Of a stretch of DNA of 64,000 nucleotides, positions 6,531 to 54,402 are shown piece after piece (positions within the stretch are counted from its first letter, which is position 1; each line of letters opens with the position of its first letter). Under the pieces are notes generated by a model. That model searched no databases. It saw only the letters and a list, made by a program, of their open reading frames with translations, and was not told where the DNA came from. The stretch is from Escherichia virus TH58, in sequence record MT446423.1; one strand, given 5' to 3'. The position numbers were made by a program, and so were the translations under genes.

Positions 6531-7277
6531 ATGTTATCAAATAATAAAATTAACAAAATCAATCGTCGTCTTGACCACACCAGAGCTTCTGCGAAGAGAC
6601 GCTCTAAGGATTTTAACTTAGACTTTAATTACCTTAAAAACATTCTTGATCAAAAGGTCTGCGCTTACTCAGGTGAATCTTTCAATAACTCTGTTGAAGG
6701 TGAGAAATTATCCTTAGAACGTTTTAATAACGATATCGGCTACATTAAAGGTAATGTTATCCCAGTTAAGAAAAAATATAACACGGCTCGTTCTGATTTA
6801 ACATTAGAAGAACTTATTGAGAAACGTGATGCCATTGCAAGACGTATCGCTAATCCTTCTGCCCGTAAAGTAGAGAAACTTAATCTCGACGAGAAGAAAT
6901 GGGCCCAAATTAAAAAGGTTTATGATACTATTTTAAAAATCCGAGCAAAACGTGAAAATCGTGTTAAGCATATGGCGAACATGATGAAAAATCAACCTTT
7001 ATCTAACGAATCTAAACTTAAAATTGTTGCTTTGAAAGCACGCATTAATGGCTCACATCAAGCAGAAGGCCATGAACTTACTAAACTCAACGTTCTTCTT
7101 AAAGGCTCTGACTGGAAAACTAAAACTAAATTAACTGACGCTGAATCGCTTTTCGATACATATGATAAAGTTATCAAAGGTCTGCAACGTTTTGAAAAGA
7201 TCGGTTTCATTGGTAAATTAAAATTGAAACGTGGCTTACCACTTAGCGCATCATTATTCCAACTGATTAAAGGTTAA
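6531..7277 (+). CDS. hypothetical Lys-rich protein (occupies T4 srd position)
   Basis: 248 aa ORF between mod genes and dda; positional only. Confidence 0.5.
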   Translation: MLSNNKINKINRRLDHTRASAKRRSKDFNLDFNYLKNILDQKVCAYSGESFNNSVEGEKLSLERFNNDIGYIKGNVIPVKKKYNTARSDLTLEELIEKRDAIARRIANPSARKVEKLNLDEKKWAQIKKVYDTILKIRAKRENRVKHMANMMKNQPLSNESKLKIVALKARINGSHQAEGHELTKLNVLLKGSDWKTKTKLTDAESLFDTYDKVIKGLQRFEKIGFIGKLKLKRGLPLSASLFQLIKG

Positions 7278-8910: not shown

Positions 8911-9588
8911 ATGAGCACTGATGTTATTATAGATTTTGAAACATTCGGCAATACATCAAAAGCGGCTGTTATTGACCTTGCGGTTATTGCATATAATTCC
9001 GACCCTGAAGTTGTTGAATCATTTGAAGAACTTGTTCAACGAGGTAAGCGAATTAAATTTAATCTAGCTTCTCAGAAAGGGAAGCGAGTTTTCGCTAAAT
9101 CCACTATGAAATGGTGGAAAGAGCAATCGGCTGAAGCACGTAAAAACTTGGCTCCATCTGAAGACGATGTCACTACGCTTGAAGGCATTAAAATCTTTTT
9201 AGACTATTGCCGAGCTAATAAAGTTGACCAATGGAAATCACAGATGTGGTGCCGTGGTATGAGCTTTGACTTCCCGATCTTGGTCGATTTGATTCGTGAC
9301 CTCTATCGTGATGAAGGTGTTCTTGAACCGGATATTGATACTGATAAATTAGAACCGGTTAAATTCTGGGCTCAACGTGATATTCGTACGGCAATCGAAG
9401 CTTACTCGTTGACACGAGGATTAAGTATGTGTCCATTACCGATGGGTACACTAAAAGGATTCGTTGCCCATGATAGTATTCATGATTGTGCTAAAGATAT
9501 TTTGATGTTAAAATATGCTCAGCGTTATGCGCTTGGTCTTGAAGATGTCCCTGAGAATCCTGACCCGTTAAGTGTAAAACAGCGATAA
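8911..9588 (+). CDS. dexA: exonuclease A (DexA, DEDD family)
   Basis: 225 aa; IDFETFG exonuclease motif; follows dda as in T4. Confidence 0.8.
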   Translation: MSTDVIIDFETFGNTSKAAVIDLAVIAYNSDPEVVESFEELVQRGKRIKFNLASQKGKRVFAKSTMKWWKEQSAEARKNLAPSEDDVTTLEGIKIFLDYCRANKVDQWKSQMWCRGMSFDFPILVDLIRDLYRDEGVLEPDIDTDKLEPVKFWAQRDIRTAIEAYSLTRGLSMCPLPMGTLKGFVAHDSIHDCAKDILMLKYAQRYALGLEDVPENPDPLSVKQR

Positions 9589-9593
9589 AACCA

Positions 9594-9623
9594 GTTTACA
9601 ACCAAGGATGGTTGGAGTATAAT
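9594..9623 (+). promoter_or_regulatory. T4-type early promoter with spacer hairpin
   Basis: GTTTAC, spacer AACCAAGGATGGTT inverted repeat, TATAAT. Confidence 0.55.
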
Positions 9624-9653
9624 CTTTCTATCTTAACCAAACAGGAAAACATT

Positions 9654-10148
9654 ATGAACATCAATACTACGGCTACTTACATCCTGAAAGACGAAAAACA
9701 AATCAACTGGTACGGTGCTTCAGTGCGAGCTTATGAAAAGTTTTGTGAAATTTTAGGTGCCACTCAAGGTAATAGTTTCACTATTGTTAACTTCATCAAA
9801 CAAGCTGAAGGTCCTTGGTTATTCTTAGAAATTAAAAATTCATATGGTACAATTTCTACTACCGCCCTTCCAAGCACCGACTTTGAACTGTTGATTGAAG
9901 AAGCACCTGTTAAAGATGGTCTCCACTTTGATATGGATATCGCTTGTATGTACGGTACTCTGATTAAGCCTATTGAGCCTACTGATTTGTTGTGTAAAGC
10001 TGTTTCGATTCGTCGTCCGTTTGCAGGTCCAGTGAGTGGATGGGTAACTGATCAGTGGATTGAAGACGGCGTTGAACTTCTGAACGTTGTTCATGCAGGT
10101 GATTTTAGTGTAGTTCCACGTAGTGCTGTGGTTAATATCCTTAATTAA
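9654..10148 (+). CDS. hypothetical protein, paralog 1 of tandem triplet
   Basis: C-terminal module GWVTDQWIEDGVELLNVVHAGDFSVV shared with next two ORFs. Confidence 0.55.
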   Translation: MNINTTATYILKDEKQINWYGASVRAYEKFCEILGATQGNSFTIVNFIKQAEGPWLFLEIKNSYGTISTTALPSTDFELLIEEAPVKDGLHFDMDIACMYGTLIKPIEPTDLLCKAVSIRRPFAGPVSGWVTDQWIEDGVELLNVVHAGDFSVVPRSAVVNILN

Positions 10149-10150
10149 TG

Positions 10151-10180
10151 TTGTACATCCAAGGATGGATGGAGTATAGT
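10151..10180 (+). promoter_or_regulatory. T4-type early promoter with spacer hairpin
   Basis: TTGTAC, spacer CATCCAAGGATGGATG, TATAGT. Confidence 0.45.
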
Positions 10181-10210
10181 GAATTCAATTTAAACAAAGA
10201 GAGAGAAATT

Positions 10211-10708
10211 ATGATTACTATTGGTGAAATCCTTCGTGTATCTCCTGCTTCTCGTTCTAAAGCTGCAGGTCGTCTGGTTGAAGTAGCAGGGCTTCGTACT
10301 AACGGCATGGGACGTGTTAAAGAAGTTAAAGTTCGAATCATGCCCAGTTTTGGCGGACAAGAGGCCCAGTATGCTTACGTAAGTCCTAAATTCCTGGAAA
10401 AACATATACGAGTCCAATTTGCTTCAAGCGAAGAAGTTGCACCTGCACACTTTGCTTCAAACGATATCGTTGAGCCTACTACACAGTTCAAATGGGCCCT
10501 TTGCAAAGGCGTTGAATTTATAACCGATAAAGAATTTGATTACATCGACGAATACGGTTATCCAAGCAAAACTGATATTATGTGCGGCTTCATTAGTGAC
10601 CAATGGGTTGAAGATGGTAAAAAGTTATACAATATTGTATTTTTAGGTGACTTCCGAGTTGTTGAAGAATCTGAAATCACTCGCTATGTTTCTCCTCGTA
10701 AAGCTTAA
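10211..10708 (+). CDS. hypothetical protein, paralog 2 of tandem triplet
   Basis: shares N-terminal ASRSK..LVEV and C-terminal GFISDQWVEDGKKLYNIVFLGDF with paralog 3; start at 10211 aligns with paralog 3 (an ATG at 10148 is also possible). Confidence 0.55.
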   Translation: MITIGEILRVSPASRSKAAGRLVEVAGLRTNGMGRVKEVKVRIMPSFGGQEAQYAYVSPKFLEKHIRVQFASSEEVAPAHFASNDIVEPTTQFKWALCKGVEFITDKEFDYIDEYGYPSKTDIMCGFISDQWVEDGKKLYNIVFLGDFRVVEESEITRYVSPRKA

Positions 10709-51234: not shown

Positions 51235-52227
51235 ATGTTACCTGTCGTCAGAAAACTTATTTCTCCAAAAGAACTGGCTGAGATTATTCCTTTGTCGGAA
51301 GCTTACGCATCACAAGTGGCTTCTCATCGCGAACAAGTTAATTCGATTATGAATGGTGAAGACCCACGCAAACTTATTGTTGTAGGTCCTTGTTCAATTC
51401 ATGACCCTATTGCTGCTGTTGAATACGGCAAACGACTGGCTGAACTTCAAACTCGTCTTCCTAATGTTCTGTTAGTGATGCGCGTTTATTTTGAAAAGCC
51501 TCGAACTACCGTAGGTTGGAAAGGTCTTGTAAATGATCCATATCTTGACGGAAGCTTTGATATGAACCACGGTCTTATAGTTGCACGAACATTGTGTCGT
51601 AAACTTCTACGTATGGGACTTCCATTAGCAACTGAAGTATTAGACCCATTCACGATTAAGTATCTTTCTGGTATTTTCTCATGGGTTGCTATTGGCGCCC
51701 GTACGACTGAAAGTCAGACACATCGTGAAATTGCTTCAGGTCTACCGATGTGCGTAGGCTTCAAGAACGCAACTAATGGTTCTATTAAAGTAGCTACAGA
51801 CGCGATGTATAGTGCCGCCTGGCCTCATCGGTATATGGGTATGGACGTCGATGGTACTGTAGGCATTGTTGAAGCTGAAGGTAATCAGAATACGCATATC
51901 GTATTGCGTGGCGGGACTAACGGCCCGAACTATCATTCTTCTGATATTCAAGAAGCTTCTAACAAAGCAAGTGCATTAGGTCTGAATCATTATGTAATGG
52001 TTGACTGTAGCCATGCAAACGCTGATGGGTATTATAGCAATCAAATTGGTATTGGTAAAAATTTAGCAGCTAATGATTTGGTCAAAGGAATTATGATAGA
52101 ATCATTCCTACATGAAGGAAATCAAAAAATTTCTGATAATATGTCCTATGGCGTTTCCATTACCGATGCGTGTATCAGTTGGGAACAAACTAAAGAGCTG
52201 TTAACTTATATTAATAAGGTTCAATAA
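51235..52227 (+). CDS. class I (AroG/AroF/AroH-type) 3-deoxy-D-arabino-heptulosonate-7-phosphate (DAHP) synthase
   Basis: 330 aa; blocks VGPCSIHDP, RVYFEKPRTTVGWKGL, IGARTTESQ and VESFLHEGNQ match E. coli AroG active-site regions; TAAGGA RBS. Confidence 0.8.
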   Translation: MLPVVRKLISPKELAEIIPLSEAYASQVASHREQVNSIMNGEDPRKLIVVGPCSIHDPIAAVEYGKRLAELQTRLPNVLLVMRVYFEKPRTTVGWKGLVNDPYLDGSFDMNHGLIVARTLCRKLLRMGLPLATEVLDPFTIKYLSGIFSWVAIGARTTESQTHREIASGLPMCVGFKNATNGSIKVATDAMYSAAWPHRYMGMDVDGTVGIVEAEGNQNTHIVLRGGTNGPNYHSSDIQEASNKASALGLNHYVMVDCSHANADGYYSNQIGIGKNLAANDLVKGIMIESFLHEGNQKISDNMSYGVSITDACISWEQTKELLTYINKVQ

Positions 52228-52808
52228 TGAAAGCTAGCACATATCTTCAAATTGCTTATTTGATTTCTCAAGAATCAAAATGTTGTTCATGGAAAGTTGG
52301 TGCCGTCATTGAAAAAGATGGACGCATTATCTCTACTGGATATAATGGTTCACCGGCCGGTGGCGTTAACTGTTGTGAACATGCATCTGAAAATGGTTGG
52401 TTGAAGAATAAACCAAGCCCGGTCATCGTTGCTGGCCATAAAGAAGGCACTACAGCATTTGGACGGGTAGATAATTTTGTTTTAGCTAAAGAACATCGGG
52501 CCGCTCATAGTGCATGGTCTGCTAATAATGAAATCCATGCAGAATTGAATGCAATTTTGTTTGCAGCTCGTAAAGGTAATTCTATTGAAGGTGCTACGTT
52601 ATATACGACGCTTTCCCCATGTCCTGATTGCACTAAAGCTATTACGCAGTCAGGTATTAAAAAGGTTGTATACGCAGAATTATACGATCGATCTCCTGAA
52701 AATTGGGCAGACATTCTAAAACAAGCAGGTATTGAAGTAATTCAGTACTCTCGTAATAATCTTCGTTCTCTGAATTGGGAACAAATTCGAAACTTTTGTG
52801 GTGAATAA
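52227..52808 (+). CDS. cd: dCMP deaminase
   Basis: 193 aa; zinc motifs HAE and PCxxC (SPCPDC); start overlaps DAHPS stop (TAATG). Confidence 0.85.
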   Translation: MKASTYLQIAYLISQESKCCSWKVGAVIEKDGRIISTGYNGSPAGGVNCCEHASENGWLKNKPSPVIVAGHKEGTTAFGRVDNFVLAKEHRAAHSAWSANNEIHAELNAILFAARKGNSIEGATLYTTLSPCPDCTKAITQSGIKKVVYAELYDRSPENWADILKQAGIEVIQYSRNNLRSLNWEQIRNFCGE

Positions 52809-53163: not shown

Positions 53164-53496
53164 ATGTCTGAAGTACAACTCCCAATTCGTGCTGTTGGTG
53201 AATATGTCATTCTGGTTTCTGAACCCGCTCAAGCAGGTGATGAAGAAGTTACCGAATCAGGACTTGTGATTGGTAAACGTGTTCAAGGTGAAGTTCCTGA
53301 ACTATGTGTAGTTCATTCTGTAGGTCCTGATGTTCCTGAAGGTTTTGTTGAAGTCGGTGATTTGACTCCACTGCCAGTTGGACAAATTCGAAATGTTCCA
53401 CATCCATTTGTGGCTTTGGGACTTAAACAACCTAAAGAAATTAAACAGAAATTCGTAACATGCCACTATAAAGCTATTCCATGTCTTTATAAGTGA
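53164..53496 (+). CDS. 31: GroES-like co-chaperonin gp31
   Basis: 110 aa; almost identical to remembered T4 gp31. Confidence 0.9.
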
Positions 53497-53504
53497 TATA
53501 AATA
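53497..53504 (+). promoter_or_regulatory. late promoter upstream of rIII
   Basis: exact TATAAATA immediately after gene 31 stop. Confidence 0.45.
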
Positions 53505-53620
53505 ACTATATGAAGAGAACACTCTTCTAAGCGGTAGCCTACAACTGAGAGACTTGTCGAAAGAAGGTGAAATTCAGACGAACGTGGCTACTAAATATTA
53601 TCTCGAATTGAGAATTTAAA

Positions 53621-53869
53621 ATGATTAAACAATTACAACACGCTCTCGAACTGCAACGCAACGCATGGAATAACGGTCATGAAAACTACGGTGCATCTAT
53701 TGATGTTGAAGCCGAAGCTCTTGAAATCTTACAGTATTTCAAACATCTGAATCCAGCACAAGCCGATCTTCGCGATATCCTGGTCCAGAAAGATGAATTG
53801 AAATATGCTAAGCCTCTGGCTTCTGCAGCACGTAAAGCAGTTCGTCATTTTGTTATTACCCTGAAGTAA
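53621..53869 (+). CDS. rIII: rIII lysis-inhibition accessory protein
   Basis: 82 aa; near-colinear with T4 rIII. Confidence 0.8.
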   Translation: MIKQLQHALELQRNAWNNGHENYGASIDVEAEALEILQYFKHLNPAQADLRDILVQKDELKYAKPLASAARKAVRHFVITLK

Positions 53870-53947
53870 GTTAAATCGAGGAGCCGTCGAACTGTTTGAT
53901 TAATGATTTGCGAATCATTATAGTTTTAAGACCTCAACAGTTTTACG

Positions 53948-53976
53948 GTGTACCTCTTGAATGTATTTTGTACTAT
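53948..53976 (+). promoter_or_regulatory. possible early promoter
   Basis: GTGTAC -35, 17-nt spacer, TACTAT -10; begins long structured leader. Confidence 0.4.
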
Positions 53977-54133
53977 CACGCGTCAGAAAAAGGTTATCTG
54001 TCTAAGTCGTGGTCGGTATGATGACGGGTTTATGGTTATCCTGTCGTTAAATATCCAAAAACCTATGTTCCCCTCGAGGGCTTGCGCAGGCAATGTCAAT
54101 AAGTCCTGCATTTTCATTTAAAGAGAATTTATA

Positions 54134-54313
54134 ATGGCAAAACAAGCTAAAGCAAAGAAAGCAGTTGAAAAGAAAGTTGATGGTACCTCTAAACGCGCTG
54201 GATACAAGCGTGGGTCGAACTCTCGTATTAATCAAACAGTTGAGAAGATCATGCGCAGAGCACGTGCAGTTCTTCGAGATGATGCTTCTCGTTTTGGAAA
54301 GGTTGTTGCATAA
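54134..54313 (+). CDS. small highly basic protein (59 aa)
   Basis: ATG 54134; Lys/Arg-rich; followed by strong terminator; not in ORF track. Confidence 0.45.
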   Translation: MAKQAKAKKAVEKKVDGTSKRAGYKRGSNSRINQTVEKIMRRARAVLRDDASRFGKVVA

Positions 54314-54318
54314 TTTTA

Positions 54319-54341
54319 GGGAGACCGAAGTCTCCCTTTTG
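54319..54341 (+). terminator. rho-independent terminator after small basic ORF
   Basis: GGGAGAC-CGAA-GTCTCCC hairpin plus TTTT. Confidence 0.65.
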
Positions 54342-54373
54342 TGCGTTTAGGGCAGAAAAAGTTTAAAAAAGAT

Positions 54374-54402
54374 GTTTACTCTCCTGTAGGATGTGTTACT
54401 AT
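54374..54402 (+). promoter_or_regulatory. T4-type early promoter
   Basis: GTTTAC, 17-nt spacer, TACTAT, TAGACTTGTACC box. Confidence 0.5.

Follow-up and report, generated by a model that had tools for sequence, protein, structure and literature searches.

Conserved structured RNA modules between genes rIII and 30.9 of T4-type phages

The stretch of 64,000 nucleotides (nt) from Escherichia virus TH58 analyzed here (record MT446423.1; the whole stretch is referred to as the window) belongs, judging by its closest DNA matches (Mosigvirus genomes, 94–97% identity), to an RB69-like T4-type phage. The element considered separates the lysis-inhibition gene rIII from the small gene 30.9; this gap begins directly after the rIII stop codon (53867–53869) and consists of structured RNA modules designated A, X, C, D1 and D2 (Table 1). 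The gene order gp31–rIII–30.9–terminator–30.8 is common to the window, T4 and ten other genera, and rIII of the window is 89–91% identical to the annotated rIII of ATK47, PhAPEC2 and T4. A preliminary description of this DNA had regarded the gap as a structured non-coding leader. All motifs listed in it were found in their places, including the hexamers GTGTAC (53948–53953) and TACTAT (53971–53976) with 17 nt between them, and the pair GACGGG (54023–54028) and CCTGTC (54040–54045).

Structured modules of the rIII–30.9 gap

The gap is matched by 773 phage records. The spacer measures 120–416 nt in the sampled Tevenvirinae, namely in T4 (244 nt, positions 130541–130784 of that genome) and in Jiaodavirus, Kanagawavirus, Mosugukvirus, Dhakavirus, Gaprivervirus, Gelderlandvirus, Karamvirus and Moonvirus. 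Identity between the window and T4 reaches 96.6% in module A and 98.3% in the C-D-E stretch, against 89.3% in rIII (69.9% at third codon positions), 92.1% in 30.9, 77.5% in cd and 72.9% in 30.8. RNA folding combined with covariation across relatives, named as a check in the preliminary description, revealed compensatory changes in the helices of the gap. These features are more than chance, since they are kept in 773 phage records, are conserved above the flanking coding DNA and carry compensatory helix changes. The conserved, structured, non-coding leader proposed earlier is thus borne out, and sequence comparison shows the modules to be real RNA-level structures under strong purifying selection.

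Table 1. Features of the rIII–30.9 region and its surroundings in the window
Feature	Position	Strand	Description
cd	52227–52808	+	Gene
31.1	between cd and gp31	+	Gene
gp31	53164–53496	+	Gene
Module F	53533–53592	+	Closed hairpin in the gp31–rIII gap (53497–53620); region z −2.38
rIII	53621–53869	+	Lysis-inhibition gene, 82 amino acids; upstream cistron of the rIII–30.9 unit
rIII–30.9 spacer	53870–54133	+	264 nt, non-coding, made of structured RNA modules
Module A	53878–53956	+	Rod-like multi-helix stem (consensus fold, covariation)
Module A helices	P1 53878–81/53953–56; P2 53883–87/53945–49; P3 53889–96/53936–43	+	Apical hairpin 53901–53920
Module X	53971–54018	+	Hairpin; conserved apical loop AAAAGGUUA, 3' internal loop UCUAAGU
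Module C	54023–54065	+	H-type pseudoknot; P1 54023–28/54040–45, P2 54031–37/54060–65
Module D1	54067–54084	+	GUUCCCC-UCGA-GGGCUUG; short G-C hairpin with conserved flanks, includes the palindrome
Module D2	54086–54109	+	GCAGG/CCUGC hairpin; conserved 14-nt loop CAAUGUCAAUAAGU
30.9 translation initiation region	54110–54133	+	Weak Shine–Dalgarno AAGAGA at about 54121–54126
30.9	54134–54313	+	ATG 54134, TAA 54311–54313; basic protein of 59 amino acids
Intrinsic terminator	54318–54343	+	Ends the rIII–30.9 unit; stem 54318–54337, then UUUGUG
Putative T4-early-type promoter for 30.8	54374–54402	+	A-tract, GTTTAC-N17-TACTAT; marks the start of the next unit
30.8, then 30.7	3' of 30.9	+	Genes

Module C is the pseudoknot of the gap. 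Its first helix (P1) is formed by GACGGG and CCUGUC, while the second (P2) pairs the loop bases UA-GGUU with the downstream AACCUA. The A-rich linker CGUUAAAUAUCCAAAAC (54046–54059, 14 nt) is near-invariant. In 25 distinct sequences of C, 84.3% of the cells are paired, compared with 70.2% in shuffles (0 of 500) and with no more than 45% when the partners are slid; two-sided changes are seen in 7 pairs and 54 cells. The second pair of P1 is UA in 17 sequences, AU in 7 and GC in 1, and the third is CG in 15, GC in 7 and UA in 3.

Module A stacks three helices into a rod and has a minimum free energy (MFE) of −24.6 kcal/mol (z −3.37). Its consensus fold comprises 25 pairs, two of them invariant G·U and 5 changed on both sides; 98.9% of cells are paired, a value reached by 0 of 500 shuffles. 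The hairpin TAATGATT-TGCG-AATCATTA noticed earlier at the beginning of the gap is present, although as the apical stem of module A and not as an independent hairpin. A terminator role for this hairpin was rejected on the same ground. Module X (MFE −11.9 kcal/mol, z −2.06) has 14 pairs, 6 of which are changed on both sides, and one phage displays a complete exchange of the lower stem. This module is absent from T4, lies 3' of C in locus L036, and an X-like hairpin is located 5' of C in the metagenome locus L282.

Covariation is weak in the two hairpins that follow. D1 occurs in most genera (it was not found in L007/PM2 or L031), either beside D2 or, in some phages, directly 3' of the rIII stop. 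Its loop varies and its CCC/GGG stem is kept, with one CCUC/GAGG variant. The perfect palindrome CCCTCGAGGG (54071–54080) of the preliminary description does lie here, but it is peculiar to the window genome: relatives read CCCTTGAGGG, CCCTTCGAGGG, CCCTTTGAGGG and others, and only a hairpin of 3–4 bp is kept. In D2, one pair switches from A-U to U-A in the Proteus-phage type, the loop being unchanged. An alternative pairing of AGGGCUUG with UAAGUCCU, which appears in the MFE fold, was rejected: the Proteus-type change is uncompensated in it and compensated in D2.

The folded strand could be recognized from wobble pairs. On the + strand, G·U pairs stand to A·C mismatches as 41:4 in module A, 19:1 in X, 22:5 in C and 37:4 in the further module B considered below. 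Therefore the sense (+) RNA is the selected, folded strand, and the same asymmetry argues against a duplex-DNA element. Thermodynamic stability was uninformative as a strand test, since the antisense strand folds better than the sense strand relative to shuffles.

The conservation could also be ascribed to an element acting as DNA (a cluster of promoters, an origin of replication, or a site of recombination or homing) or to unannotated small open reading frames (ORFs). A 10-bp "ori type 2 repeat" is labelled in the gap of one related record, and short hypothetical ORFs are annotated within it in several records; in thermodynamic terms the minus strand folds no worse than the plus strand, and the shuffling of modules described below implies frequent recombination at the gap. 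Such an explanation is nevertheless very hard to credit. Neither duplex DNA nor cruciforms would be expected to produce the G·U over A·C asymmetry of the + strand, and the changes are compensatory in helices rather than synonymous. Single-nucleotide indels among close relatives (GACGGG/GACGAGG, CCTGTC/CCTGGTC, CAAAAC/CAAAAAC) break every reading frame inside the gap. ORFs of 41 and 57 codons were rejected for these indels and because their frames and stops are not kept; a leader peptide starting from a conserved AUGAUG 5' of C was discarded on the same grounds.

Promoters within the gap fare no better under this explanation. A promoter scan returned 5 promoter-like sites versus 5.7 in shuffles, and the pair GTGTAC/TACTAT, earlier read as a promoter, was not among them. 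Neither the hexamers nor a spacing of 16–18 nt is kept across the phages: T4 is devoid of TACTAT, the spacing in L017 is 11 nt, and in Gaprivervirus module B is inserted between the positions of the two hexamers. TACTAT is a part of module X, which T4 lacks, and its recurrence inside this module probably misled the preliminary description.

Transcription unit and gene 30.9

A late promoter, TATAAATA (53497–53504), is situated upstream of rIII. At the other end of the unit, the strong terminator previously noticed after the small ORF is confirmed by its conserved position and by covarying stems across Tevenvirinae (GGGAGAC/GUCUCCC, GGACUCC/GGAGUCC, GGGAACC/GGUUCCC). In the window it has an 8-bp stem (−13.2 kcal/mol, z −3.75). 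A terminator is found directly 3' of 30.9 in every sampled Tevenvirinae genus, though not in the Pseudomonas phage L013, and is annotated in the ATK47 and PhAPEC2 records; a simple terminator scanner of the window did not report the stem. In most genera the terminator is followed by a GTTTAC box. In the window this box belongs to the sequence that we take, from the T4 early promoter consensus, to be the promoter of 30.8. Because a late promoter lies 5' of rIII, no internal promoter is conserved and the 30.9 terminator is conserved, we infer that the gap is co-transcribed with rIII and 30.9 in a unit ending at this terminator.

The small ORF was said earlier to encode a basic protein. It is a real and highly conserved gene, although not a new one, being T4 gene 30.9 (NP_049823), which already carries an annotation in T4 itself and in many relatives. 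The window protein is 96% identical to T4 gp30.9 over residues 1–56 and matches phrog_1427 with an E value of 2.4e-31; a tblastn search with gp30.9 gave 1006 phage records. All 65 of the 65 protein clusters with a named source belong to T4-type phages or their hosts, most clusters having no source name. The alignment contains the invariant motif SKRAxYK..SN and a conserved, helical C-terminal half. The AlphaFold2 (AF2) model, of low confidence (predicted local distance difference test score, pLDDT, 66.8), comprises a disordered N-terminus and two helices. No significant match to gp30.9 was obtained in Pfam and the PDB, and a literature search on its function found no paper apart from one expression study of 2003. 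Nucleic-acid binding, which the Lys/Arg-rich composition might suggest, is a guess.

The annotation of 30.9 is inconsistent. Many GenBank records label it "1,4-alpha-glucan (glycogen) branching enzyme, GH-13-type", and UniProt lists a 97-amino-acid "11.1 kDa protein in Gp30-rIII intergenic region" with a start inside the non-coding leader.

The preliminary description had also suggested that the leader controls the peptide. A possible hairpin AUUUUC/GAGAAU is seen in the MFE fold of the initiation region, and trapping of the Shine–Dalgarno sequence by the last hairpin before 30.9 was considered as a candidate. The Shine–Dalgarno pairing is no higher than in shuffles, and a simple translational trap is therefore unsupported; moreover, the modules shift in order and in distance to the start codon between genera. 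The suggestion of control in this form was not upheld.

A leader of this kind could still serve as an autoregulatory operator, where gp30.9 would bind the structure and repress its own translation or destabilize the mRNA. The protein is small, Lys/Arg-rich and predicted to be helical, gene 30.9 in Tevenvirinae is always accompanied by a long structured leader 5' and a terminator 3', and loops of this type classically rely on a pseudoknot as the operator (PMC3014915). The possibility appears rather improbable in view of the distribution of the modules. Some phage loci carry C but yielded no 30.9 homologue in the stretch of sequence examined, and the distance from C to the AUG varies from 68 nt in the window to about 280 nt in L005. 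In addition, module content is independent of the two gp30.9 sequence types, and no leader of this kind precedes the distant 30.9-like gene of Pseudomonas phage PspYZU05.

Module shuffling and occurrence of the pseudoknot in other phages

The modules are differently arranged in different phages: A-X-C-D in the window, h0-A-C-D in T4, h0-A-B-C-D in Gaprivervirus, h1-C-h0-B-D in Jiaodavirus and hairpin-B-C-D in Kanagawavirus and Karamvirus. The slot 3' of D1 is occupied by six different hairpins, all with complementary closing stems, for example GGGAGC/GCUCCC and GAGAG/CUCUC. Module F, located in the gp31–rIII gap of the window, is 87.5% identical over 48 nt (E 6e-8) to the insert of the D2 slot in the 30.9 leader of Citrobacter phage Moon; it sits in the 30.9 leader in Moon, PG7 and Jiaodavirus. 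Its closing stem covaries (GGUAGCC/GGCUAC versus GGGAGC/GCUCCC), and the inner stem is capped by C(GAAA)G. These sequence arrangements show that the modules are self-contained cassettes shuffled and swapped by recombination and moved between the rIII–30.9 and gp31–rIII gaps. The DNA examined contains one copy of each module. Additional copies were not found in the 64-kb window except for the sister module F, and hidden Markov models (HMMs) of C, X, B, D1 and h0 gave no match in T4 68000–76000, the region of tRNAs and RNAs C and D.

Several observations concern the further elements of this set. The gp31–rIII gap has the same build across genera, namely the late promoter, a hairpin, a slot hairpin and a hairpin with the rIII Shine–Dalgarno sequence. 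The slot holds F or a GCGCAGC-YUAAAC-CUGGUACCG element; the Shine–Dalgarno hairpin reads CCUCAUUUGAGG across genera and UCUCGAAUUGAGA in the window. The element h0, GGUGAUUCGCUACCUUAGUGCGGCUAG, is present in L001 (1775–1802), T4, L005 and L010 and was judged by eye to form a small pseudoknot (CGC/GCG changing to UGC/GCA and CAC/GUG). In h1 (L005, L007 and L031), likewise judged by eye, a stem surrounds the invariant loop UGUACG and varies from CCAUG/CAUGG to CUCUG/CAGAG and CUUUG/CAAAG.

Module B, about 135 nt long, is found in the rIII–30.9 gap of Gaprivervirus, Jiaodavirus, Kanagawavirus, Karamvirus, Moonvirus and others, and not in the window. It was located in L009 (about 923–1060), L006, L011, L012, L005, L025, L027, L029, L030, L034 and L039, with divergent copies in L024 and L031. 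The consensus fold contains 37 pairs, 16 of them changed on both sides, and a loop–loop pseudoknot between YGAUGG and CCAUCR is probable. One copy per genome is present in 19 IMG/VR contigs and no Rfam match was obtained; module B looks like a complex undescribed structured RNA.

Module C was sought beyond T4-type phages by pattern scans, profile filtering and then a covariance model designated R1, which scores 68 bits in the window and 39–55 bits in unrelated phages. It was found in five further contexts outside T4-type phages. In L072, a 55-kb contig with a different terminase, C occupies the 58-nt spacer between tRNA-Asp and tRNA-Pro in a cluster of 12 tRNAs (6797–6854, 55 bits). In L193 it lies in a stretch of about 500 nt without convincing ORFs, 3' of the terminase gene and tRNA-Ile (39 bits). 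The L282 group of five metagenome contigs carries C with the X-like hairpin just 5' and tRNA-Met nearby (about 41 bits), and in Vibrio phage 1.187.O (L286) C lies in a 1.65-kb ORF-free region beside two tRNAs (42 bits). The copies in unrelated phages add compensatory variants of P2, for example AGUU/AACU and CUAUGUU/AACAUAG. In bacterial genomes, 27 of 27 exact-pattern matches were chance matches without the pseudoknot. A first pattern gave no match in metagenomes and a second one gave five new non-T4 loci.

Some features of these loci were recorded in passing. L072 and L193 have a terminase family in common (phrog_979). About 2 kb from C in L072, an ORF on the − strand (8936–10357) encodes a 473-amino-acid protein of phrog_850, "RNA-binding protein", with Pfam domains DUF2828 and DUF7788. 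In L286 the region 959–2607 (MG592553, 53775–55423) contains no ORF longer than 68 amino acids in its 1.65 kb and is directly 3' of tRNA-Arg and tRNA-Met; the C-like pseudoknot is at 1479–1530. A second element of this region, AACCUGUAACAAGGUCGAGUC..UGAC.GGUAAUA, is 87–90% identical to metagenome loci L279 and L282–L284. The region matches nothing in Rfam and may represent a large non-coding RNA region.

Being located in tRNA clusters and ORF-free stretches of unrelated phages, C cannot serve rIII or 30.9 there. The modules, and C above all, could be autonomous small stable RNAs that are excised from the transcript and work in trans, for instance as decoys for, or partners of, a protein of host or phage origin (a factor of the ribosome, of tRNA processing or of defence). 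Trans roles of a similar kind have long been suspected for T4 RNAs C and D. In L072, tRNA processing would release C from its spacer, and C-like elements scored by R1 at 39–55 bits recur in four further unrelated contexts near tRNA genes or without ORFs. One copy per examined genome, free module order, near-invariant loops and linkers, and module sets that do not track the two gp30.9 sequence types also speak for independent RNAs. On the other side, the window has no tRNA gene, the T4 tRNA/RNA C/D region has no module copy, and in Tevenvirinae the modules are always at one locus, directly 5' of 30.9. On balance this explanation is somewhat less likely than the role in cis proposed below, though not far behind it. 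It can be extended, just as tentatively, to an autonomous RNA toolkit (C, B, X, F, h0 and h1) shared by Tevenvirinae and at least four unrelated phage groups, exchanged as cassettes and acting in trans. Such cassettes would be swapped between intergenic sites and tRNA clusters, set free as stable RNAs and directed at the machinery of host or phage, for instance as decoys for RNases, tRNA-targeting defence nucleases or ribosomal components.

As an H-type pseudoknot with a conserved A-rich third loop, C resembles the preQ1-I/II, SAM-II and guanidine-III aptamers, and strong conservation extends to its unpaired bases. Such properties would suit the aptamer of a riboswitch responding to a small molecule and regulating expression downstream. 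This function is nonetheless most improbable for C, because it has neither an expression platform nor a fixed distance to a gene: it overlaps neither a terminator nor a Shine–Dalgarno sequence and lies at varying distances from the following gene. Even with the cutoff relaxed to E ≤ 10, it is matched by none of the Rfam riboswitch models, the neighbouring genes have no common metabolic theme, and in L072 the pseudoknot is placed between two tRNAs.

The Rfam 15 covariance models gave no match to the 264-nt gap at E ≤ 10. In the window segment 53400–54700 the top scores were 12.8–23.4 bits (E 0.67–9.2), at chance level compared with gathering scores of 34–65. The related and unrelated loci gave only one weak sub-threshold match, at the T4 30.9 terminator, apart from tRNAs and their antisense echo. 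Neither Rfam 15 nor the T4 literature consulted contains the modules, which appear to be new; a 2023 catalogue of about 10,000 anonymous viral candidates (PMC10690425), which is not searchable, may list one of them. They are best classed as new conserved structured RNA motifs, whose unusual trait is the cassette-like shuffling.

Proposed role and comparison with known systems

A role in cis is proposed for the modules. Within the sense rIII–30.9 mRNA, the gap would form a series of structures that fold independently of one another: the rod A, the hairpin X, the pseudoknot C and the two hairpins D1 and D2. On the polycistronic mRNA, these could offer RNases or RNA-binding proteins recognition sites or stand in their way as roadblocks, setting the cleavage points and the survival of the rIII and 30.9 halves of the message, and hence the amounts of the two proteins. 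They would not constitute a ligand-operated switch at the 30.9 ribosome-binding site. C, with its invariant A-rich linker, would be the best candidate for a triplex-stabilized roadblock or a protein-binding site. RNA structure governs RegB and RNase E cleavage as well as translation initiation in T4 mRNAs (PMC3014915). That the modules are cis-acting processing and stability structures of the rIII–30.9 mRNA is the reading adopted here, with a confidence slightly short of even.

Several points weigh against this role. The alignment of C was built in blocks anchored on invariant bases and may favour the proposed structure, and the covariation in module A represents few events among closely related phages. 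The folding z score of the whole gap is −0.98 on the + strand versus −3.05 on the − strand. The pairing probability of the 30.9 Shine–Dalgarno sequence is 0.51, versus 0.48 with shuffled upstream sequence. The presence of C in tRNA clusters and long ORF-free stretches of unrelated phages belongs here as well. A generic nuclease barrier leaves the near-invariant single-stranded parts (the C linker, the D2 loop and the X loop) unexplained; these therefore point to a specific partner or a tertiary fold. Finally, we infer both the co-transcription and the effect on mRNA decay from the sequence.

The significance of the gap is of several kinds. T4, which is among the best-studied viruses, itself carries gap structures that are conserved above the neighbouring proteins and stand in no RNA family catalogue. 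The gap bears on the dosing of RIII (lysis inhibition, S1 binding) and of the highly conserved gp30.9. The sharing of C by unrelated phages, among tRNA genes, suggests a general phage RNA function. A toolkit of trans-acting RNAs, if true, would provide the first functional non-coding RNAs of T4-type phages besides tRNAs. According to a 2010 review, T4 had yielded no functionally characterized riboswitch or trans-acting small RNA, and the roles of RNAs C and D were unknown (PMC3014915). The question can be tested directly, because the locus is small and non-essential-looking and lies in a genetically tractable phage.

Known systems offer partial parallels. With the leader pseudoknots of T4 gene 32 and of S15 and S4, module C shares an H-type pseudoknot in the untranslated leader of a gene whose small product is of a nucleic-acid-binding type, and gene 32 is in addition phage-encoded and belongs to the same phage family as the window locus. 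S15, S4 and T4 gp32 are autoregulated via pseudoknotted leaders. Unlike these, C has no sequence relation to them, is not fixed to the start codon and also occurs away from 30.9; in the window leader no AU-rich lattice for cooperative binding extends to the ribosome-binding site. The preQ1-I and SAM-II aptamers are similar to C in size and topology, with a short P1, a loop-to-tail P2 and an A-rich linker possibly placed in the minor groove of P1. In distinction from them, C is matched by no covariance model, lacks both an expression platform and a related gene context, and has a longer linker (14–17 nt).

Mobile regulatory cassettes of T4-type phages, termed PeSL (promoter-early stem-loop), were reportedly described by Arbiol, Comeau and Krisch in 2010. 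PeSLs combine an early promoter with a stem-loop, are present in many copies per genome and flank variable ORFs. The window modules resemble them in being short, non-coding and moved by recombination between intergenic regions of T4-type genomes. They differ from PeSL in the absence of a conserved promoter, in being single-copy (apart from the sister F) and in RNA covariation that includes a pseudoknot.

T4 RNAs C and D (species 1 and 2) are, like the modules, phage-encoded, non-coding and structured, and module C is found elsewhere inside tRNA clusters. The differences are in size and place: RNAs C and D are 119–139 nt long with a tRNA-like 3' part, unlike the 45-nt pseudoknot, and the Tevenvirinae modules reside in an mRNA spacer, their HMMs matching nothing in the T4 tRNA/RNA C/D region. 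GOLLD and ROOL are large non-coding RNAs of phages and prophages, typically beside tRNA genes. No Rfam match to either was obtained, and the window element, unlike them, consists of small separable modules within an mRNA; it is comparable to GOLLD and ROOL as a conserved structured phage RNA, and the ORF-free C loci L193, L282 and L286 have a similar tRNA-adjacent context.

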